Source: Patescibacteria group bacterium
GTDB taxonomy: Bacteria > Patescibacteriota > Patescibacteriia > UBA9934 > GWF2-40-263
DNA length: 64,000 nt
NCBI GenBank assembly: GCA_041661745.1
Contig: JBAZTR010000004.1
Span: 76,999-140,998 of the forward strand
Direction of reading: 5' to 3'
Part shown: positions 1,755 through 64,000 of the stretch, one piece after another
How positions within the stretch are numbered: the stretch's first letter is position 1
How the letters are laid out: each line of letters opens with the position of its first letter
The notes under the pieces: generated by a model
Seen by the model: only the letters and a program-made list of their open reading frames with translations
Databases searched by the model: none
Told to the model about the DNA's origin: nothing
Made by a program: the position numbers and the translations under genes

Positions 1755-1836
1755 AGGGAACGAAAGAGCAAATATTTACGAATATACGAATTAGAAAAAA
1801 TTCGTATATTAGTACGGATTCGTAATTTCGTCCCCC
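1755..1836. repeat. cargo-less (MITE-like) copy of the inverted-repeat element that carries the GxxExxY gene at 34958..35430
   Basis: The left half gggaacgaaagagcaaatatttacgaatatacgaatt matches the reverse complement of the repeat at 35391..35430. The right half aattcgtatattagtacggattcgtaatttcgtcccc matches the reverse complement of the repeat at 34958..35000. The two ends are joined by a 6-bp spacer and together form a near-perfect dyad. Confidence 0.6.
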
Positions 1837-4655: not shown

Positions 4656-5237
4656 ATGAGCAATAAATTAGTGGCCATTGTCGGTATGTGTGGCAGTGGC
4701 AAAAGTGTTTTAGCCGATGCTTTAGTAGCCGAGGGTTACGGGTACCTCCGCTTCGGACAAATTGTCCTTGATGAAGTAAAACGCCGTGGCCTTCCACCCA
4801 CCGAACCTTTGGAGCGAGAAATCCGCGAGAACTTCCGCAAAGAACACGGTATGGGGGCCTTTGCTATTTTAAACATTCCTAAATTCGACGAGCTGTTGAA
4901 AAACGGAAATACGGTCGGTGATGGCATGTACAGCTGGGACGAATACAAAATTCTAAGGGAACGTTATGGTAAAAATTTCATAACCGTAGCTATTTACGCT
5001 CCGCCTCAAATGCGTTATGAACGATTAGAAAAACGCTTCTCTGATGCTAACGACACTGATTTGCGCAATCGTGGTTTTTCACGCGAAGCGGCCGCGGCTC
5101 GCGACCAAGCTGAAATCGAAAACAGCGCAAAAGGTGGACCGATTGCCATGGCCGATTACACTATTGTGAACGCCGGAACGGTCGAAGAATATCAGGAACA
5201 AATCAAAAAAGTTATTGAGTGGTTAAAAACAAAATAA
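4656..5237 (+). CDS. P-loop nucleoside/nucleotide kinase-like protein
   Basis: Walker A VAIVGMCGSGKSV at the N-terminus; about 190 aa; embedded in the nucleotide-metabolism cluster. Confidence 0.45.
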   Translation: MSNKLVAIVGMCGSGKSVLADALVAEGYGYLRFGQIVLDEVKRRGLPPTEPLEREIRENFRKEHGMGAFAILNIPKFDELLKNGNTVGDGMYSWDEYKILRERYGKNFITVAIYAPPQMRYERLEKRFSDANDTDLRNRGFSREAAAARDQAEIENSAKGGPIAMADYTIVNAGTVEEYQEQIKKVIEWLKTK

Positions 5238-33400: not shown

Positions 33401-33986
33401 TATTAGTCATTTCTTGCTCGGGAATTTCCGGACGATCAACCAGCTCTAAGAAAAAATTATTCTGGCCAAAAATTTGGACGTATTCCTCAATCAATTTTTT
33501 GGCAGTCTCACGGTTGTCGTTAACAATAGCTTGATCAATATCACTAAACCGCCCGCCGGATAAAACAATCAAGCCATGGTCCTTACCCTGGCAAATTTCT
33601 TTTATTAATTCTTTATCAAGCCGCGGCTTGTAATAAAAACCTTCAAGAAAGCCGCGGGTGGAAAGTTGAATAAGATTCTTGTAGCCGGCCATGTTCTCGC
33701 ACAAAAAAACCAAACGATTGGGCTTAGCATCCATTTTGCCACGCTTTTGTAAACGGCCGTTGGGCGCTAAGTAAGCGTCCATGCCGATGATCAGTTTAAT
33801 CTCCTCATCCTTACACTTTTGGTAAAAATCAATTATTCCGTACATGACCCCATTGTCGGTTAAAGCAAAGGTGTCCATTTTACGCTCTTTCATAGCCTTA
33901 ATCAGAGCCTTGGTTTTGGGCAAGGCCTCAAGAAGCGAATAATGGCTGTGGGTATGAAGATGAACGAAAGGGGATTTGTCAGGCAT
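30450..33986 (-). CDS. dnaE: DNA polymerase III alpha subunit
   Basis: PHP domain (FVHLHTHSHYSLLEA), polymerase core and OB-fold; 1178 aa. Confidence 0.9.
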   Translation of the reverse strand: MPDKSPFVHLHTHSHYSLLEALPKTKALIKAMKERKMDTFALTDNGVMYGIIDFYQKCKDEEIKLIIGMDAYLAPNGRLQKRGKMDAKPNRLVFLCENMAGYKNLIQLSTRGFLEGFYYKPRLDKELIKEICQGKDHGLIVLSGGRFSDIDQAIVNDNRETAKKLIEEYVQIFGQNNFFLELVDRPEIPEQEMTNTVLAELGKEMGVPIVATKNVFYLKPQDNEAWKILQCVKDGRTLEEFDRTQTYDYDASLVEAEYMINRFKDLPEAIENTRKIADRCDVQFDLGKWNFAHFEVPDGLTHLEYLRQRAFNELPNKVDEVTEEMKKRIEYELSVIEMKGFAPYFLIVSDYIEWARAHGIMTATRGSAAGSLVSFSIGISTVNPIKYKLPFERFLNPERPSAPDVDGDFADNRRDEMIAYVTNKYGADKVAQICTFGTMLARGSIRDVGRALGHEYSFVDSVSKMVPMGSQGFPMTLKRALDEDVDLKKRYDTEPDVRRLINLAQQIEGCARHVSIHAAGVVFSPTPLTDFTPLQIDTREGKTITQYEMHAVEAAGLLKMDFLGIRNLSILGDAVRIIRKVKGVDINIDKIPVDDPKTFELLANGNTMGTFQLNGDGMTKYLMELKPTRIEDIMVMVALYRPGPIESIPEYIRRKYDASLIKYLDPRLEEILDASYGVIVYQDDVMLISIKLGGYSWLEADKLRKAMGKKIPEEMAKQKEKLLDGFQKHGLSKSKSDELWKLIEPFAAYGFNKAHAASYGTVAYQTSYLKANYPAEYMSALMTAESADLETISAAVKECQRMGIAVLPPDLNESRPTFTYIDDNTIRFGLVVIKNLGAEAVDAIFNEREANGPFKDLADFATRVHHRAFNKKALEALIKAGALDSFGERKCLLENIEQILHFNKEAKEKQAQNQSSLFDLSPALATEKLKFRPTPPAEKNELLAWEKELLGLYISAHPFDDIEKKVGQYLLPLNQLQSQPENSFVKVGGLVTSVKTIVTKKGDNMAFVGLDDKNGKAEVIVFPSAYNQFGKMLAEDKLVLVSAKVSRREGEEAKLLANSFIFVDTAHAGDVAAMLQDNLWVPGEVTASKDNPSLLPPAPLKPLLPRNFLEITFLGKPNPEIVAQLRELLTASRGSRRVRFIVSAGPAQRVMDTDYYVDPTNELLSEIKALVGSNNVKL

Positions 33987-33989
33987 AAT

Positions 33990-34023
33990 CTTGTAGGGGC
34001 AAAAGATCTTTTGCCCCTACAAG
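33990..34023. terminator. perfect 15-bp palindrome between the 34097..34636 gene and dnaE
   Basis: cttgtaggggcaaaag atc ttttgcccctacaag. Confidence 0.5.
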
Positions 34024-34096
34024 ATTAACAAAAACCCCCTCCTCCCGCCAGAGGCGGATAAGGAAGGAGCTCTCGAAACACTTTTTGTTCAATCTA

Positions 34097-34650: not shown

Positions 34651-34953
34651 TTAATCATCAAAATCGGCAATTTTTTTACTTTTCTTTTCCTGTTTTTTAT
34701 CAATGGCGTATTCCACCACCTTACGAATACTATCAACTAGAAACGATAAGCCCATGGTGGCTTTTTCGAACTTGCCGCGGATGCCAGTAATTGCTTCTTC
34801 AATTTTGGCCATTTTTTCGCGAGCTTCGGCCATGGTGTCATTTACATTTTTCAAAATCATGGCAATTTGCCAAATGAGCCAGCACATAAAGGCCGTGACC
34901 CACAAAGCACAGAAAGCCAAGACAATGAAAAGGATGTCTTGAGATTGAAACAT
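34651..34953 (-). CDS. small membrane protein (DUF948-like: N-terminal TM plus coiled-coil)
   Basis: ILFIVLAFCALWVTAFMCWLIWQIAMIL followed by a charged helical region. Confidence 0.4.
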   Translation of the reverse strand: MFQSQDILFIVLAFCALWVTAFMCWLIWQIAMILKNVNDTMAEAREKMAKIEEAITGIRGKFEKATMGLSFLVDSIRKVVEYAIDKKQEKKSKKIADFDD

Positions 34954-34957
34954 AGAG

Positions 34958-35430
34958 AGGGGACGAAATTACGAATTCGTACGAATATACGAATTTTTTA
35001 CTTTTTAATATTTACGATTCTTTTTTGTTTTACTCCTTCACTGGTAAAATTGAGAAGAATTCCTAGTTGCAAATCACCTGAAACTAAATAGTCTAAAACT
35101 TGTTTTATATGTGCCCCGGAAAAATATTTTTCACATTTTAGTTCGACAATAATTTTGTCCTCAACAAGAAAGTCGAAAAAGTTCTGCCCAACAATCTTTC
35201 CGTTATACTTTACTGGAATGTAAAATTGTTCTTTAAATTTTTTCCCTCGCTTTTTCAACTCCTCAGCTAAAGCACGTTGGTAAGTTCTTTCCCGATGTCC
35301 AGAACCCAATTGGTTGAATACTTCGAAAGCGGCTCCTACGATTTCAAAACTTTCATCCCTGTACAAAAGATCAACCCTGGTCACCACCATACAAAATTCG
35401 TATATTCGTAAATATTCGCTCTTTCGCCCC
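34958..35430. mobile_element. small cassette: GxxExxY (PD-(D/E)XK-like) gene flanked by imperfect terminal inverted repeats of about 40 bp
   Basis: Left repeat 34958-35000 ggggacgaaattacgaattcgtacgaatatacgaatttttt. The reverse complement of the right repeat 35391-35430 is ggggcgaaagagcgaatatttacgaatatacgaatttt. They share the outer GGGG(a)CGAAA and the inner ACGAATATACGAATTTT. A cargo-less copy of both ends sits at 1755..1836. Confidence 0.6.
34998..35390 (-). CDS. GxxExxY family protein
   Basis: IVGAAFEVFNQLGSGHRERTYQRALAEELKKRG...FFDFLVEDKIIVELK matches the GxxExxY protein signature. Confidence 0.7.
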   Translation of the reverse strand: MVVTRVDLLYRDESFEIVGAAFEVFNQLGSGHRERTYQRALAEELKKRGKKFKEQFYIPVKYNGKIVGQNFFDFLVEDKIIVELKCEKYFSGAHIKQVLDYLVSGDLQLGILLNFTSEGVKQKRIVNIKK

Positions 35431-35441
35431 CTCCCTAATCT

Positions 35442-37892
35442 TTACCTAATTGTACCAGAAAAGTCGTCCTTAATCACTGTGACTAACTTTTCCATGTCTT
35501 TTTCAACTTCATCGGAGGACAAAGTACGGTCGGCCGCCCGGAAGGTTAGGTGAACAGCCACTGATTTTTTGTCCGGATCAATCCCCTTCCCCTGATAAAC
35601 ATCAAACAACTCAACGGTGTGTAAAAGTTTTGAGGTTTTGATAAAAATCTTTTCCAAGGTTGAATAAGCGGTGGTCGTAGAAACAACAAAAGCTAAATCT
35701 CTTTTTACATCAGGAAATTCTGGAATCTTTTCGTACTTATTTTGTTTAGGCACCAAGGTGGATAAAAGCGAAAGATTAATCTCGGCCACAACCGCTCGCC
35801 AATCCAAACCAATAGCCCGACCAATCGCCGGTTCGGCTTCGGTCAAGCAGCCGATAAATTCGCCACGGGTGTAAAGCTCGGCACGACGCGACGGGTGTGT
35901 CCAAACCGGCCCCTTGGTCATAGGTCGCACCTCAACAGCAAAACCAAACTCTTCCAAAAGCCCGACAATCATACGCCGACCTTCGACAAAAGGTTTGCCG
36001 TCACCCTTCGAAGAAAAAGCCAAACCCAACCAATGATCTTGGCGCGGCAAGGCTTTACTGCTGCCATCATCCTCGCCAGGTAATTCGGCCACATAGTGAC
36101 GACCAATTTCGAACAAACAAACCGGATCAGTAAACTTTTGATTTGTTTTAATGTTTTCTAAAAGATTCGTGGCCAAAGTCCTGGCCAAATACGGTCGTTC
36201 TTTAGAAATAGGGTTGGCTAGCTCAAGATAATCAGATAATTTCTCGCCCATCTTTTCCAAAATCTGCGGGGCCACAAAGCTGTAGTTGTAAGTTTCCGTG
36301 GCCGCAAAACGATCGGCTAAAATATGACGGACTCTTCGTTCTAACTCACGCCCCGAGTCTTTGGTTGGCGGGGTGATTTCAACACACGGCAAAGTTAATG
36401 GGATTTTTTCATAACCATAAACCCGGGCGATTTCCTCTAACAGATCTTCGGCAATGGAAATATCTTTGGTGGCCCGCCAGGTTGGAATAGTTACATTCAA
36501 ATTTTCGCCCTTCTTCTTTACCTCAAAACCAAGCCGTTCAAGAATTCCAATCATCTCATCCGTGGGAATATTTAAACCAAGTTTAGCCGAAACCATGGCT
36601 AATGGCAGAACAATCGGCCCTTGATTCAAAGAAAAATTCTTAACGTCAACCACTTTGGAAACAACACGCGCCCCGGGAATTAATTCCAAAAGAAGTCCAA
36701 CAGTGCGACGAATGGCAATTTCTGACAAATTAGGATCCAAACTTTTTTCGTAACGCAACGAAGCTTCGGAACGCAAACCCAACCGCTGTGAAGTTTTGCG
36801 AATACCTGCGGAATTAAAATTGGCTGATTCAAGAAAAACTGTCGTGGTATTATCATCAATCTCGCTATTTTGCCCACCCATAATGCCGGCCAAAGTTACT
36901 GCTTTCCGACCATCACAAATTAAAAGATCCGAGGAAACCAATTTTCTTTTTTCATCATCTAGAGTTAAAAACTCCTCACCAGCTTCGGCCGTCTTAACAA
37001 CAATTTCAACCGTCTTTTCTTTACCTGAAGCATTTTCCAATTTGTTCGCGTCAAAAGCATGCAGCGATTGTCCGACTTCGAGCATGACATAGTTGGTAGC
37101 ATCAACAACATTGTTGATTGGCCGCATACCAACAGCCGAAAGCCGCTTTTGCAACCAATCGGGAGACGGGGCAATTTTTATTCCATCAATGACCACGCCA
37201 ATATAGCGAGAACACAACTCCGGCTCGGCCACCTTAATCGACAAATCAAAACCCTTCCCTTCTTTAATTGCCGGCGGATTAATTGGTTTAAATTTTGTAT
37301 TCAATAGCGCGGCGACCTCATGAGCAAAACCGTGATGACTAAACAAATCGGGTCGATTGGTTAACGACTTATTATCAACTTCAATAATTGCGTCATCAAG
37401 ACCAAGAGCTTCGGACAAAGCCGTGCCAGGTTCAACCTCAAGATAACTTAAATCAACAATTTCGCGCTCGCTTTCGCGGCCAGTAGCCAAACCGATTTCA
37501 TTGGCCGAACAAATCATACCAAAAGAATCAACCCCGCGCAGTTTGGTTGGTTGAATTTCCACTGGTTCACCTTCACCATGCCATTTAACTTTGGCTCCAA
37601 CCATTGCTACCGCAACTTTCTGGCCATCGGATAAATTGCTGCCGCCACAAACGATCTGTACGGGCACAAAATTTTGTGCCCCTACGTCAACCTCACACAC
37701 CCGCAATTTATCGGCGTTAGGATGAGGGTTAACACTCAAAATCTTTCCGACAACAATTCTTTCAAGCGGCCCGGCCTGCCCCTCAATTCCTTCGACTTCG
37801 ACCGTGCAATCACTAATACGCTCGGCTAAATCCTTGTCGTTGACATCGCCCAAATCAACAAAATCTTTTAACCATTTTTTTGACAATAACAT
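35442..37892 (-). CDS. pheT: phenylalanine--tRNA ligase beta subunit
   Basis: 816 aa with N-terminal tRNA-binding, B3/B4, B5 and anticodon-binding-like domains; immediately downstream of pheS. Confidence 0.9.
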   Translation of the reverse strand: MLLSKKWLKDFVDLGDVNDKDLAERISDCTVEVEGIEGQAGPLERIVVGKILSVNPHPNADKLRVCEVDVGAQNFVPVQIVCGGSNLSDGQKVAVAMVGAKVKWHGEGEPVEIQPTKLRGVDSFGMICSANEIGLATGRESEREIVDLSYLEVEPGTALSEALGLDDAIIEVDNKSLTNRPDLFSHHGFAHEVAALLNTKFKPINPPAIKEGKGFDLSIKVAEPELCSRYIGVVIDGIKIAPSPDWLQKRLSAVGMRPINNVVDATNYVMLEVGQSLHAFDANKLENASGKEKTVEIVVKTAEAGEEFLTLDDEKRKLVSSDLLICDGRKAVTLAGIMGGQNSEIDDNTTTVFLESANFNSAGIRKTSQRLGLRSEASLRYEKSLDPNLSEIAIRRTVGLLLELIPGARVVSKVVDVKNFSLNQGPIVLPLAMVSAKLGLNIPTDEMIGILERLGFEVKKKGENLNVTIPTWRATKDISIAEDLLEEIARVYGYEKIPLTLPCVEITPPTKDSGRELERRVRHILADRFAATETYNYSFVAPQILEKMGEKLSDYLELANPISKERPYLARTLATNLLENIKTNQKFTDPVCLFEIGRHYVAELPGEDDGSSKALPRQDHWLGLAFSSKGDGKPFVEGRRMIVGLLEEFGFAVEVRPMTKGPVWTHPSRRAELYTRGEFIGCLTEAEPAIGRAIGLDWRAVVAEINLSLLSTLVPKQNKYEKIPEFPDVKRDLAFVVSTTTAYSTLEKIFIKTSKLLHTVELFDVYQGKGIDPDKKSVAVHLTFRAADRTLSSDEVEKDMEKLVTVIKDDFSGTIR

Positions 37893-61316: not shown

Positions 61317-61385
61317 AGTTGAGAACAGTATAACATATTTTATCTTGATTAAGCAGTGGAAAACTTGGCCCTATCGGATTACCTC

Positions 61386-61837
61386 TCCCCCCTACCCCTC
61401 TCCTTCGTAAGGAGAGGGGCTTTTGGATCTATTTAATAAAAACGTTTTGATCGTTTCTAAAACTACTTCTATGTGATAATTAATATCGAAATTACTAAAT
61501 CTTAAAACCACTAGACCAAGAGATTCCAAAAAGCTCTGACGATTAATATCGTTTTCTTTAATTTTCGGATCTTGATGAATTTTACCGTCAATTTCTATAA
61601 CCAGACGCAGTTTTGGACAATAAAAATCGACAAAATACTGCCCAATGTTTACCTGACGACGAAATTTCTGATCGGCAATTTGTTTCTTTTTTAGAAACAT
61701 CCAGAGACGATCTTCATAAACAGTCGCCTCCCGACGTAATTTGCGACGAGTTTCTTTAGTTTCCGGCCGATTGAATAGCTTAGTTATAAAACTGGACCTC
61801 CCCTCTCCTTTACGAAGGAGAGGGGTTAGGGGGTAAG
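61386..61837. mobile_element. DUF559 endonuclease-like gene bracketed by 33-bp inverted repeats, each containing a CCCCTCTCC/GGAGAGGGG hairpin
   Basis: Left repeat cccccctacccctctccttcgtaaggagagggg (61386-61418). The reverse complement of the right repeat (61804-61837) is ccccctaacccctctccttcgtaaaggagagggg. The stop-to-stop open frame runs exactly between the outer edges of the two repeats. Confidence 0.55.
61392..61700 (-). CDS. DUF559 (Vsr-like endonuclease-fold) protein, probably N-terminally truncated or degenerate
   Basis: FRRQVNIGQYFVDFYCPKLRLVIEIDGKIHQD...DINRQSFLESLGLVVLRFSNFDI matches DUF559. The conserved upstream segment ...RRKLRREATVYEDRLW is in frame but has no ATG before 61700. 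Confidence 0.55.
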   Translation of the reverse strand: MFLKKKQIADQKFRRQVNIGQYFVDFYCPKLRLVIEIDGKIHQDPKIKENDINRQSFLESLGLVVLRFSNFDINYHIEVVLETIKTFLLNRSKSPSPYEGEG

Positions 61838-61883
61838 GTTAGATAAAAATCCCGACGCGGAAAGAACCGCCTCGGGAATGAAT

Positions 61884-63716
61884 TTAGTCGCAATCGGCCA
61901 CGACCATGGCCTCGCAGCCATCGGCCGTGCCGGCCGTCTTGTGGTACACCGCGGGCTCGAGGTCGCAGGTCGTCCCATCGGGCGAGGTGAACTCGACTGT
62001 GTGCGTGCCTTGGAGTTCATCGTCGACCTCGTTGTAGGAGGTCGACTCACAGCTCCAGTCGTAGGAGCCGTACGAATTGGCTTCGACGCTGTAACGAACA
62101 GTCTGGCCCTCGGGCACCACGAACGAGAAGGTGATCTCGTCGTTCCCAGTGGCCGTGAAGGTCGTGCCAGCCCAGCTTTCGAAGTCGTCTTCGCTCGCGG
62201 CGTACTCGTAGGTGGCCGTGAGGCTCTGCGAGTTGTAGCCGAAGTCGGTTTCCCAGGTCACGGTCATGATACCGTAGCCGGTATCGGCGTCGGTGTCCGT
62301 GTCAGTATCCGAATCTGTGTCCGTGTCGGAGTCCGTGTCCGAATCGGAATCGACATCAGTATCCGTATCAGCGTCACCGGTGTCGTCTTCCAGATCCGGG
62401 AGATCGGTGTTGTTGCCGCCGTGGTTGCCGGATTCGGACAGGTCGAACCCGCCGCCACAAGCGGTCAGGTTCTCGGGAGTGAGGCACCACAGGCCAGCCG
62501 AACAGTCGCCCACTTCTTCCTGTACCTCGGCCACGGCGCCGTCGGGCACGGGGATGATCTCGCGCTGGTAGTAACCGGCCAGGAGGTAGGTGTTCCAGTC
62601 GAGAACTGGAGCGGCCACTCCACCCGTGATCACGTACACGTCCGAGTGCGAGTCTTCTTTGAGAATCGCCCCGTCGCGGAAGCGGGCGTGGCCGGACCGC
62701 TCGGGCCAGGCCGTGTAGATGTTGGTGTCTGGCGGCGGATTGGTTTCGGAGTAGCTGAGACCCCACGAGGTCATGACCCCTTCCGAGGCCATGTCTTCGA
62801 CCATCTGGCGGTAGCGGTTCGGGTCATCGGAAGCCCCGACCACCAGCCAGTGGAAACCGAACTCGTCGGTGTAGGCGTCGACAAGCCCTTCGTCCACGAC
62901 CTCCTCCCCCTCTCCATAACACTTCAACTCCTCGTTGGAGATAAGGGTGAGATCGGCGAAGTTGTAGCCGTAGCTCCAGAAGATGTCTTCGTTCCGAAGC
63001 CAGCGCCGCGCGCCGTCTTCGATGAGGTAGACGTCCGGGCTCGAGGGCACCTTGACGAGCGTGCCATCCGGATGCCAGAGCGGCACCGAGAGGTCCGAAG
63101 CGTACCAGTGACCGCTTGCTTCGTCGCAGACAAAGCCGTCGGTCGAGTCGTTTTCGTATTCCTCCTCGATCGTGGTGTCGGCCGCACGCATGTAGGTGTC
63201 GATGGAGGTGCCGTACTGTGCCTGGAGCGAAGCATCGCCCTCGTGACGGCCGTAGTGCAGATGGTCGCCGGTGCAGAGACCGGTGCAACCCTCGTAACCG
63301 AGAAGTGTTCCGGGGGCCACTTCGTCACCGTCGGCAACGAAGATCCGGTCGAAGTGCGCCAACACCAGGTAGGTGCCGTCGCCGAGGTCAAGATTCACGT
63401 GGTAGCCGAAGTTGGTCGTGGCACTTTCCATGTGCACGCGGACCACGCCGGCTTCGGGGGCGTAGATCTCCTCGGCCTCGTAGTTGCTGGTGTCGAAGTC
63501 GAGGTCGTGGCGAGTGGAATTGCCGGTGTGGCTGTAGCTGCCACCAGCCCCTTGCACACACAGGTGCGTTTCGCTCCGGGCGAAAGGCAGCTGCACCGAA
63601 GTGCCGCCACCCTGCTCGCCCGACTGGTCGGCCGTGTCCATGAAAGTGGTGTTGAACGGCTGAAGACCGCAGGCCACCAGGAAAAAGAACACAAGAGCCA
63701 GGATAATGGTTCGCAT
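61884..63716 (-). CDS. lipoprotein M23 (LytM-type) peptidase with tandem C-terminal targeting repeats and a DTDS low-complexity segment; encoded on a GC-rich island
   Basis: Lipobox LVAC after MRTIILALVFFF; M23 His motifs (HLCVQ..., TGDHLHYG); (DTDS)n; two C-terminal repeats of the G.LVK.PSSPDVY.IEDG.RRWL type. Codon third positions are overwhelmingly G/C, unlike the rest of the window. Confidence 0.7.
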   Translation of the reverse strand: MRTIILALVFFFLVACGLQPFNTTFMDTADQSGEQGGGTSVQLPFARSETHLCVQGAGGSYSHTGNSTRHDLDFDTSNYEAEEIYAPEAGVVRVHMESATTNFGYHVNLDLGDGTYLVLAHFDRIFVADGDEVAPGTLLGYEGCTGLCTGDHLHYGRHEGDASLQAQYGTSIDTYMRAADTTIEEEYENDSTDGFVCDEASGHWYASDLSVPLWHPDGTLVKVPSSPDVYLIEDGARRWLRNEDIFWSYGYNFADLTLISNEELKCYGEGEEVVDEGLVDAYTDEFGFHWLVVGASDDPNRYRQMVEDMASEGVMTSWGLSYSETNPPPDTNIYTAWPERSGHARFRDGAILKEDSHSDVYVITGGVAAPVLDWNTYLLAGYYQREIIPVPDGAVAEVQEEVGDCSAGLWCLTPENLTACGGGFDLSESGNHGGNNTDLPDLEDDTGDADTDTDVDSDSDTDSDTDTDSDTDTDTDADTGYGIMTVTWETDFGYNSQSLTATYEYAASEDDFESWAGTTFTATGNDEITFSFVVPEGQTVRYSVEANSYGSYDWSCESTSYNEVDDELQGTHTVEFTSPDGTTCDLEPAVYHKTAGTADGCEAMVVADCD

Positions 63717-64000
63717 GGCGTCCTCTTTTTTTGAGTGAAGAGGCGCCACGATATTCGCAGCCGCCTCGACCAGCGCGCTAGTACTTTCGCGCCGATCGAG
63801 CGCGGCCGTTCGGCCGTATGCGCAGGTTCGATGACCGAACCAGCGGCGCTCCCCTTTGCCTTGAACTTTCAAAGTTCAGGTTTTTCCGATCGTTCGTTTA
63901 ACCAACCGGCGTTTTGCTCGACCTTTCCAGGAAGAATTATTAACTCCATTCAGCCGTACAGTTTGGATTTCAACAAAATTTCAGTCTCCGCACCGCACGG

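Follow-up and report, generated by a model that had tools for sequence, protein, structure and literature searches.

The stretch of DNA analysed here, 64 kb of contig JBAZTR010000004.1 from a Patescibacteria group bacterium (called the window in the following), carries between pheT and the gene of a 100-aa membrane protein a hairpin cassette of ~480 bp, in which a promoter-less nuclease-family gene occupies precisely the loop that two inverted arms enclose. The genes on the minus strand follow each other in the order pheS, pheT, the 130-aa open reading frame (ORF) of the cassette, the 100-aa membrane-protein gene, a 179-aa ORF and dnaE. The product of the 130-aa ORF is named 'MAG: GxxExxY protein [Patescibacteria group bacterium]' in the source databases (MAG, metagenome-assembled genome). 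A second copy of the paired arms, without a gene, is found between rplK and rplA. The features concerned are:

35442–37892, minus strand: pheT, upstream flank of the cassette
35391–35437, minus strand: upstream (5') arm, TAGGGAGGGGGCGAAAGAGCGAATATTTACGAATATACGAATTTTGT in gene orientation, with four ACGAA(T/A)-type hexamers
34998–35390, minus strand: GxxExxY / PDDEXK_3 gene, 130 aa
34954–35000, minus strand: downstream (3') arm, (TAA)AAAATTCGTATATTCGTACGAATTCGTAATTTCGTCCCCTCTCT, containing the GxxExxY stop codon
34651–34953, minus strand: gene of the 100-aa membrane protein, downstream flank of the cassette
1756–1835, no strand: gene-less hairpin, with left arm 1756–1792, a 6-nt loop at 1793–1798 and right arm 1799–1835

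In a repeat search the two arms of the cassette were the strongest inverted repeat of the whole window (34953–35000 and 35390–35437; 48 nt, 81% complementary, 389 nt between them), and local alignment of the 130-nt flanks led to a score of 31 compared with 10.6 ± 1.8 for shuffled sequences (maximum 19, n = 1000; z = 11.4). The upstream arm starts 8 nt past the pheT stop codon and ends 5 nt ahead of the ATG of the GxxExxY gene, while the downstream arm runs up to the ATG of the next gene. An arm profile matched the upstream arm at 35396–35427 (30.4 bits) and the downstream arm at 34962–34994 (38 bits), and a search of the 64-kb window with this profile gave no arms beyond those of the cassette and the copy at 1756–1835. 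The core 16-mer TACGAATATACGAATT occurs four times in the window when up to two mismatches are allowed (0.05 expected). The central spacer is mismatched between the two arms, with ATT opposite TCG. An earlier reading made from the letters alone (the sequence-only reading) had described a 130-aa GxxExxY-family ORF between inverted repeats that abut it. Both statements were borne out, the first by the Pfam and TIGR matches given below together with the z-score, the second by the 5 nt between arm and ATG and by the stop codon inside the downstream arm. A chance match or an assembly artefact behind the repeats can practically be dismissed, being ruled out by the z-score over shuffled sequences and by the identical protein and locus in five independent assemblies; moreover, the arms are kept in orthologous loci from other samples.

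The 130-aa protein showed PF13366 PDDEXK_3 as its sole Pfam match (117.4 bits, cut-off 22, E 5.6e-34), and TIGR04256 GxxExxY was matched equally well (117 bits, cut-off 35, E 5.6e-34). The motif G31-H-R-E34-R-T-Y37 and the predicted catalytic set E34, D73 and E83-x-K85 are intact. When 39 homologues were aligned, G29, E34, E83, K85 and Y101 were invariant, and G31, Y37, D73 and Q97 were conserved to at least 90%. No solved homologue was detected by sequence search. The AlphaFold2 model (predicted local distance difference test, pLDDT, 92; predicted template modelling score, pTM, 0.85) predicts a restriction-endonuclease-like alpha/beta fold with generic PD-(D/E)XK neighbours: the best Foldseek match in the PDB was Cas4 SSO0001 (E 6e-5, template modelling score 0.55), followed by lambda-exonuclease-like enzymes and tRNA-splicing endonucleases. 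Identity as a defence or phage protein was rejected, as PADLOC gave a weak generic RTasPDDEXK match (E 0.0025) with no stretch passing and PHROGs no meaningful match for the protein. The PF13366/GxxExxY family comprises 35,362 clusters at 50% identity (E ≤ 1e-3), or 14,705 (E ≤ 1e-10), in the representative library, and PDDEXK_3 has been listed with the function 'unknown' and with 'multiple transfers' (Steczkiewicz et al., 2012; PMC3424549). Many of the best family matches are 250–295 aa long with two matched stretches and represent tandem two-domain GxxExxY fusions, which suggests that the 130-aa protein may work as a dimer.

The arm family and its association with GxxExxY genes

The gene-less hairpin at 1756–1835 lies between the stop of rplK (1741) and the start of rplA (1876), which encode the ribosomal proteins L11 and L1. 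Alignment assigned its left arm to the upstream-arm type of the cassette (GAGCAAATATTTAC) and its right arm to the downstream-arm type (ATTACGAATCCGTAC), so that it is the asymmetric two-armed unit of the cassette without its gene. The empty copy which the sequence-only reading had placed at 1755..1836 was therefore recovered with both arms, by repeat search as well as by alignment. The same hairpin, though with different loops, was also observed at the rplK–rplA junction of two further loci (L018, L023), so that it is syntenic in three genera. As a member of a dispersed hairpin family, the copy could be a derivative of the cassette, a target or an independently spreading unit.

A pattern matching each of the eight arms (CGAAA..CRAAT....CKAATATACGAAT) was run against GTDB species genomes and detected the motif in at least 119 stretches. 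The carriers listed are from many Patescibacteria classes and from Bacteroidota, along with some Gammaproteobacteria, one Campylobacteraceae and one Bdellovibrionales genome. The consensus arm, gCTACGAAAT(T)ACGAAT-nnn(n)-TACGAATATACGAAT, corresponds to four direct ACGAA(T/A) hexamers. An outer GGGG(A)CGAAA, previously noted as common to both repeats, holds within the lineage of the window in the form GGGG(A/G)CGAAA but not across the family, for which the consensus at this position is cTACGAAAT. A profile search of the listed arm-motif loci led to at least 300 arms and at least 80 convergent pairs; among the matches listed, about 70 of 80 convergent pairs are separated by under 140 nt and represent gene-less hairpins. 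At least 11 hairpins with related loops and unalignable flanks were found in a single Staskawiczbacteria MAG (nzgw417), and five gene-less copies with a common 42-nt loop in a marine Patescibacteria MAG. The nzgw417 hairpins (L013, L032, L036, L037, L050, L065, L100, L109, L115) typically end with ...ATTTCGTAGCCAAATT right before an ATG, on either side. The gene-less element seems to insert at the translation-initiation region of its neighbour, or to supply it. Single ACGAAT arms (e.g. L011, L020, L031, L041, L045, L069, L084) often abut other short-repeat arrays, namely AGGACG, CTCAAA, GTTCAT, AGGATT, GTCATCCTGAGCG and CCTCTCC/GGAGAGG hairpins resembling the arms of DUF559 genes (see below), pointing to a larger repertoire of modular intergenic repeats in the genomes of Bacteroidota and of the candidate phyla radiation (CPR).

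Arm pairs at the distance of a gene are tied to GxxExxY. Among the matches listed, all arm pairs 401–457 nt apart enclose a GxxExxY ORF, at seven loci from five independent lineages (the window, L001, L004, L081, L117, L096 and L027), and no other cargo was observed between ACGAAT arms at gene-size spacing, except for a nested DUF559 cassette in L210. The arms around the GxxExxY ORF of L092 are 1135 nt apart; L090 and L116 have a GxxExxY ORF next to one arm, the partner of which is unmatched or beyond the end of the locus. Taking all fetched loci together, 38 of the 44 inverted-repeat pairs spaced 250–800 nt enclose GxxExxY. The association was also seen starting from the protein: a protein-seeded scan of Joint Genome Institute (JGI) metagenomes gave 80 GxxExxY loci, 74 of them evaluable, and scoring of their 130-nt flanks revealed inverted repeats with z ≥ 4 at 54 loci (73%) and with z ≥ 3 at 59. 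The arms in this gene-centred sample abut the ORF and consist of three to four direct copies of a short unit spaced 8–10 nt. In about half of the cases this unit reads ACGAAT, in the others ACTAAT, ACAAAT, CACGAAT, ACGGAT, ACAGAT, CAGGAT or others. In the cultured carrier Bacteroides finegoldii (NZ_OY725952.1, 15222–15596), the GxxExxY gene is located between radA and the gene of an FAD-dependent protein and has the arms TTCACCACAGAGGACGCAGAGGACACGGAG (z 10). A different arrangement was observed on a plasmid of Fusobacteria bacterium ZRK30 (CP102406.1, 31377–31751; L215), where GxxExxY is flanked by a ~50-nt direct repeat (..AGATTTAATCCGTGTACCTAT..), not an inverted one.

According to the sequence-only reading, the idea of a cassette would fall if the repeats were generic terminator or promoter palindromes adjoining many unrelated genes with no link to GxxExxY. 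Gene-less hairpins do adjoin many unrelated genes, but the association with GxxExxY is strong, and the idea stands. Intrinsic terminators or promoter palindromes were also rejected as such: promoter- and terminator-like sites in the window are counted at the level of shuffled sequence, none of the terminator-like sites coincides with an arm, and downstream of the hairpins come coding starts instead of T-runs.

Upstream of GxxExxY in a Bacteroidetes MAG (CAIYIS01, L117), the arm motif is repeated in tandem at least four times, in 58-nt copies (4718–4960), an arrangement that recalls the array of a type III toxin–antitoxin system. The cassette might accordingly be explained as a toxin–antitoxin-like or defence module, in which the repeat-rich RNA or DNA of the arms restrains a nuclease toxin as in type III systems, and the purifying selection on a gene that is not moving (see below) would agree with this. 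Nevertheless, such a module is very improbable: the PADLOC match is weak and generic and a PHROG match is missing, there is no partner gene, and hundreds of gene-less hairpins as well as the hairpins in rRNA genes described below would be left unexplained.

Junction occupancy and age of the cassette

Eight pairs of cassettes with 70–94% aa identity were found in unrelated contexts with non-homologous flanking ORFs (L135/L137, L144/L147, L134/L143, L138/L146, L181/L190, L156/L178, L191/L203 and L139/L141). For six of the eight, the homology forms one block of 430–510 bp that starts and stops at the outer ends of the arms; the homologous stretches measured 432–506 nt. Direct alignment of L156/L178 and of L191/L203 is confined to the ORF (366–383 nt), and their arm regions match cross-wise, in separate pieces. 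Each homology block follows the stop codon of one gene and precedes the ATG of its neighbour. Insertion is precise at such operon junctions and also in rRNA genes (see below).

The 100-aa membrane protein was used as query for orthologous junctions with or without the cassette. The junction between pheT and the membrane-protein gene is occupied by the cassette in the window, L001 and L004. In L208, whose neighbouring protein is 85% identical, it holds a 27-nt spacer resembling a remnant of the downstream arm, and in L212, the most distant relative, a 50-nt spacer without arms. The same junction in Uhrbacteria GCA_016209325.1 (L210, 2968–3500) shows a frameshifted DUF559 cassette that is enclosed by degenerate ACGAAT arms and has its own CCTCC/GGAGG inverted repeat, reflecting either a nested insertion or a replacement of the cargo. 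Occupancy also varies at the pheS/pheT junction. It is empty in the window (TAA-T-ATG), whereas L004 has a DUF559 gene there, bracketed by inverted repeats of 46 nt, and L001 a decayed form of that cassette. In Uhrbacteria JAZDEQ01 (L116) the junction is taken by another GxxExxY cassette, 40% identical, whose arm on the in-contig side is of the ACGAAT type. The earlier proposal of a discrete mobile cassette is thus supported by homology blocks in unrelated contexts, by variable junctions and by the association of GxxExxY with the arms.

The window itself includes a DUF559 cassette, comparable to the one that is present, decayed or absent at the pheS/pheT junction of the relatives. Its arms (61381–61410 and 61810–61839; 30 nt, 87% complementary, 399 nt apart) surround a DUF559 ORF at 61392–61700 on the minus strand (PF04480, E 5e-25), so that the whole unit spans 61381–61839. 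The arm CCCCTCTCCTTCGTAAGGAGAGGGG is a hairpin in itself, and the C-terminal 'SPSPYEGEG' is translated from it. The ORF falls short of the profile by about 25 positions at the N-terminus, and the in-frame stretch upstream is without a start codon; the gene may be decaying. Right after this cassette the guanine-plus-cytosine content rises from ~44% to 57–63% (62000–64000). This part contains the gene of a 662-aa Peptidase_M23 protein with Asp/Thr/Ser-rich repeats (61884–63872, minus strand) and a long ORF on the opposite strand, and the gene was probably acquired horizontally. A further palindrome of the window, perfect over 42 nt (33986–34027, halves TAATCTTGTAGGGGCAAAAGA and TCTTTTGCCCCTACAAGATTA), is located directly upstream of the dnaE start and is unrelated in sequence to the ACGAAT arms.

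The age of the window copy was assessed by comparison with the orthologous loci L001 and L004, which are on contigs from other samples. Their GxxExxY proteins are 84% and 83% identical to the one in the window, at the same site (pheT, GxxExxY, membrane-protein gene) and with both arms kept. Synonymous sites are saturated between the window and these genomes (proportion of synonymous differences, pS, 0.57–0.83). The ratio of non-synonymous to synonymous substitutions (dN/dS) of GxxExxY is 0.03–0.12, at a pS of 0.62–0.78, and thus comparable to pheT (0.11) and the membrane-protein gene (0.04), and the arms are 77–89% (upstream) and 95–100% (downstream) identical. Low dN/dS and conserved arms despite saturated synonymous sites indicate that gene and arms are under purifying selection and vertically inherited. 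The window copy is an old resident, neither a recent insertion nor a decaying relic. Recent mobility of this copy was rejected on the basis of synteny at 81–84% aa identity and the saturated synonymous sites.

Hairpin anatomy and RNA folding

For the anatomy of the hairpins, 41 gene-less hairpins were compared with random arm pairs. Variation is minimal in the hexamer cores. The outermost of the variable bases covaries, as it is equal in both arms at a frequency of 0.74 compared with 0.35 in random pairs. The central spacer of 3–5 nt, on the other hand, matches less than in random pairs (0.07–0.28 vs 0.27–0.32), which indicates two helices of ~15 bp with a maintained internal loop. Pairing takes place between the arms and not within a single arm, the arms being direct hexamer arrays. 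As RNA, the whole window cassette was predicted to form a long-range stem in the minimum-free-energy as well as in the centroid fold (z −4.8), and the 1756–1835 hairpin reached −31 kcal/mol (z −5.9). A known RNA family was rejected as explanation: no Rfam 15 family matched the hairpins at the gathering score, whether those of the window or those of 15 loci, and relaxed thresholds led to generic miRNA-hairpin noise with E > 0.2. Of 46 GxxExxY genes, 41 point in the same direction as the gene upstream of them and 39 in the same direction as the gene downstream. Together with the chance-level promoter sites, this fits an expression of GxxExxY by read-through from the host operon.

These properties could also be explained if the arms were cis-acting RNA elements of the host, such as RNase III sites, mRNA-stabilizing hairpins or elements of translation coupling at operon junctions, retained for their benefit to the host, with GxxExxY as a domesticated gene or passenger and nothing mobile at present. 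Arms that remain nearly invariant where synonymous sites are saturated, a rplK–rplA hairpin that is syntenic in three genera, the many hairpins stopping ~8 nt ahead of a start codon, the co-orientation of the cassettes with their neighbours and the stable long-range RNA stem predicted would all be in line with such elements. However, the primary sequence is conserved across phyla beyond what pairing requires while the spacer is kept unpaired, and arms and gene occur as a single homology block in unrelated contexts. Orthologous junctions vary in their occupancy, near-identical copies including the loops are dispersed in one genome, and there is no T-run, no excess of terminators or promoters and no Rfam family. 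We therefore regard host elements as an unlikely explanation.

Relation to known elements and possible mode of action

In its structure the cassette resembles the intervening sequences (IVSs) of 23S rRNA genes. The IVS of Coxiella is 428 nt long with a terminal inverted-repeat stem, a ~13–14-kDa ORF (S23p) and three to four direct GACAGAT heptamers upstream of this ORF; it is excised by RNase III, and IVSs have long been suggested to be relics of mobile DNA (PMC4990558). IVSs (Coxiella burnetii, Leptospira) and the cassette have in common a length of ~430–480 nt, a single ORF of ~120–130 aa filling the loop of terminal inverted repeats, short direct repeats in the ends, no obvious translation signals of their own and vertical inheritance in a lineage. 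They differ in location, as IVSs reside in a 23S rRNA helix (classically 25 or 45) and the window copies between protein-coding genes, with no rRNA found in the 64-kb window. They also differ in cargo, which is a PD-(D/E)XK-family protein (PF13366) in the window cassette and a four-helix-bundle S23p/IVP protein (PF05635) in IVSs. Excision by RNase III has been shown for IVSs, and we infer it for the cassette.

ACGAAT hairpins were nevertheless also detected in rRNA genes. In a Paceibacterota locus (L029), two gene-less hairpins (690–756 and 1274–1340) lie inside a large-subunit (LSU) rRNA gene (Rfam RF02541, 1399 bits), in gaps that match ~594–663 and 1160–1245 of Escherichia coli 23S rRNA, the second of which includes helix 45, the classical IVS site. 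A further ACGAAT arm (L059, 1333–1367) is located in an LSU rRNA gene at about position 2200–2260. By analogy, these rRNA hairpins would behave like ORF-less intervening sequences. In turn, two PF05635 genes (23S_rRNA_IVP, four-helix-bundle, bAvd-like; L169, 4285–4695, minus strand, and L189, 2156–2512, plus strand) lie outside rRNA and are bordered by short direct repeats in inverted arrays (AGATCG- and GTAAGTA-type, respectively), the architecture also seen in the GxxExxY cassettes.

A second comparison is offered by the REPIN–RAYT systems, i.e. hairpin-forming doublets of repetitive extragenic palindromic (REP) units and their REP-associated tyrosine transposases (RAYTs). There, too, the gene is present in one copy, is inherited vertically and lies between copies of a repeat that is otherwise scattered through the genome as hairpin-forming doublets without a gene, and that the RAYT presumably mobilizes (PMC3116915, PMC3337134, 10.1101/2021.07.10.451892). 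Long-term persistence in a lineage under selection and a copy number varying between genomes are likewise common to both. The RAYT is a Y1/HUH transposase, in contrast to the 130-aa PD-(D/E)XK-family protein of the cassette, and a REP unit is a small imperfect palindrome with a GTAG/CGTC head, in contrast to the direct hexamer array of the cassette arm. Furthermore, the arm sequence is common to several phyla, unlike that of REPIN–RAYT systems, and the link between enzyme and repeat is one that we infer for the cassette. With classical transposons or miniature inverted-repeat transposable elements (MITEs) bounded by terminal inverted repeats, the cassettes share dispersion in multiple copies and homology ending at the terminal repeats, but not a target-site duplication. 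Correia/NEMIS MITEs of Neisseria are short and gene-less, have terminal inverted repeats, and are co-transcribed with neighbouring genes into RNA hairpins cut by RNase III; no transposase is known for them. Unlike the cassette family, they duplicate a TA target, are restricted to a single genus and have neither a gene-bearing version nor hexamer arrays. Free-standing homing endonuclease genes, including that of the PD-(D/E)XK enzyme I-Ssp6803I, are small selfish nuclease genes at precise conserved sites with presence/absence polymorphism; they differ from the cassette by the lack of portable bracketing repeat arrays and of dispersed gene-less copies. Judged by these analogies, REPIN–RAYT systems appear to be the closest functional analogue and ORF-bearing IVSs the closest structural relative.

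The window unit is likely a discrete IVS-like or REPIN-like cassette. The overall model, an IVS-like, REPIN-like hairpin cassette that carries a nuclease gene, is somewhat probable, and we propose the following mode of action for it. The GxxExxY nuclease would bind the hexamer arrays and make DNA breaks, whereupon arms with or without the gene would be copied or moved, either by homing-like repair or by cutting and rejoining. Gene-less hairpins would be the non-autonomous relatives, as REPINs are to their RAYT. At the RNA level, the arms transcribed from the host operon would pair into a long stem with internal loops, which RNase III or another enzyme specific for double-stranded RNA could excise, in the way known from rRNA IVSs. 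Such an excision would make an insertion at an operon junction or in an rRNA helix harmless and would release the own mRNA of the cassette. The GxxExxY nuclease as the mobility enzyme is the more tentative part of this proposal.

Several observations weigh against a nuclease-driven cassette. No target-site duplication was found at the boundaries of ten cassettes, and the window cassette and the rplK–rplA hairpin are syntenic across genera with no recent movement. No GxxExxY gene was present among the matches listed for the Staskawiczbacteria MAG with its at least 11 hairpins, although this does not settle the matter. The hexamer variant does not follow protein similarity, with 41.5% identity within the hexamer classes (CGAA, CTAA, CAAA) compared with 42.6% between them (permutation p = 0.76), so that a co-evolution signal tying the protein to its sites is missing. 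Co-evolution of hexamer variant and protein lineage was therefore rejected; the third base simply varies (ACDAAT). Finally, like arrays also occur around 23S_rRNA_IVP genes and around a DUF559 gene, indicating that the architecture does not depend on the GxxExxY protein in cis.

Alternatively, the hairpin itself could be the mobile unit, moved by an unlinked enzyme or by host replication or repair acting on palindromes, and the small genes GxxExxY, 23S_rRNA_IVP and DUF559 could be passengers captured in its loop, comparable to the unrelated genes of integron cassettes. The PF05635 genes in like architecture, the DUF559 cassette within ACGAAT arms in L210, the hairpins without a gene being far commoner than those with one, the lack of linkage between hexamer variant and protein similarity, and the Coxiella IVS, whose heptamers accompany an S23p ORF and not a nuclease, all speak in favour of capture. 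Against it, ACGAAT arms at gene-size spacing always hold GxxExxY among the matches listed (L210 with DUF559 being the exception), and 73% of the protein-seeded GxxExxY sample is flanked by inverted repeats. In addition, the cargo consists of nucleases or nucleic-acid-binding proteins and not of random small genes, and the GxxExxY gene is under strong purifying selection. Capture by a hairpin moved in trans is thus quite improbable, although less so than a toxin–antitoxin module.

Full-text literature searches, with subscription journals mostly outside their coverage, gave no paper on function or mobility for GxxExxY, PDDEXK_3, PF13366 or TIGR04256, and no description of repeat-flanked GxxExxY cassettes, of the ACGAAT hairpin family, of DUF559 with inverted repeats or of CPR with hairpins. 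This agrees with the statement of the sequence-only reading that such a cassette has not been formally described; the closest described elements are 23S rRNA IVSs and REPINs with their RAYTs. Within elements of the IVS and REPIN type, it is the cargo, the genomic niche and a defined motif common to several phyla that are new here.

For annotation, the arms are of practical relevance, as they are often translated as spurious N- or C-terminal extensions and as the hairpins can be mistaken for terminators. With Bacteroides finegoldii a cultured carrier is available, which makes experiments feasible. Questions on the origin and mobility of IVSs date from ~1990 (PMC4990558). It is conceivable, if rather speculative, that GxxExxY nucleases together with hexamer-array arms constitute an unrecognized multi-phylum class of nuclease-driven, hairpin-ended mobile elements, with gene-less hairpins and many IVSs as non-autonomous members; if true, the mobility machinery that IVS-type elements have so far lacked would be found in this class. 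In a bolder version of this idea, the nuclease would act on the conserved internal loop of the RNA stem and excise the cassette from host transcripts like a protein-dependent intron. The finding links orphan nuclease genes scattered over operons, the abundant intergenic palindromes of reduced CPR genomes and of Bacteroidota, and the IVSs of 23S rRNA. The GxxExxY family thereby gains a concrete context, its genes being mostly the cargo of compact hairpin cassettes with a DNA motif that extends across phyla.

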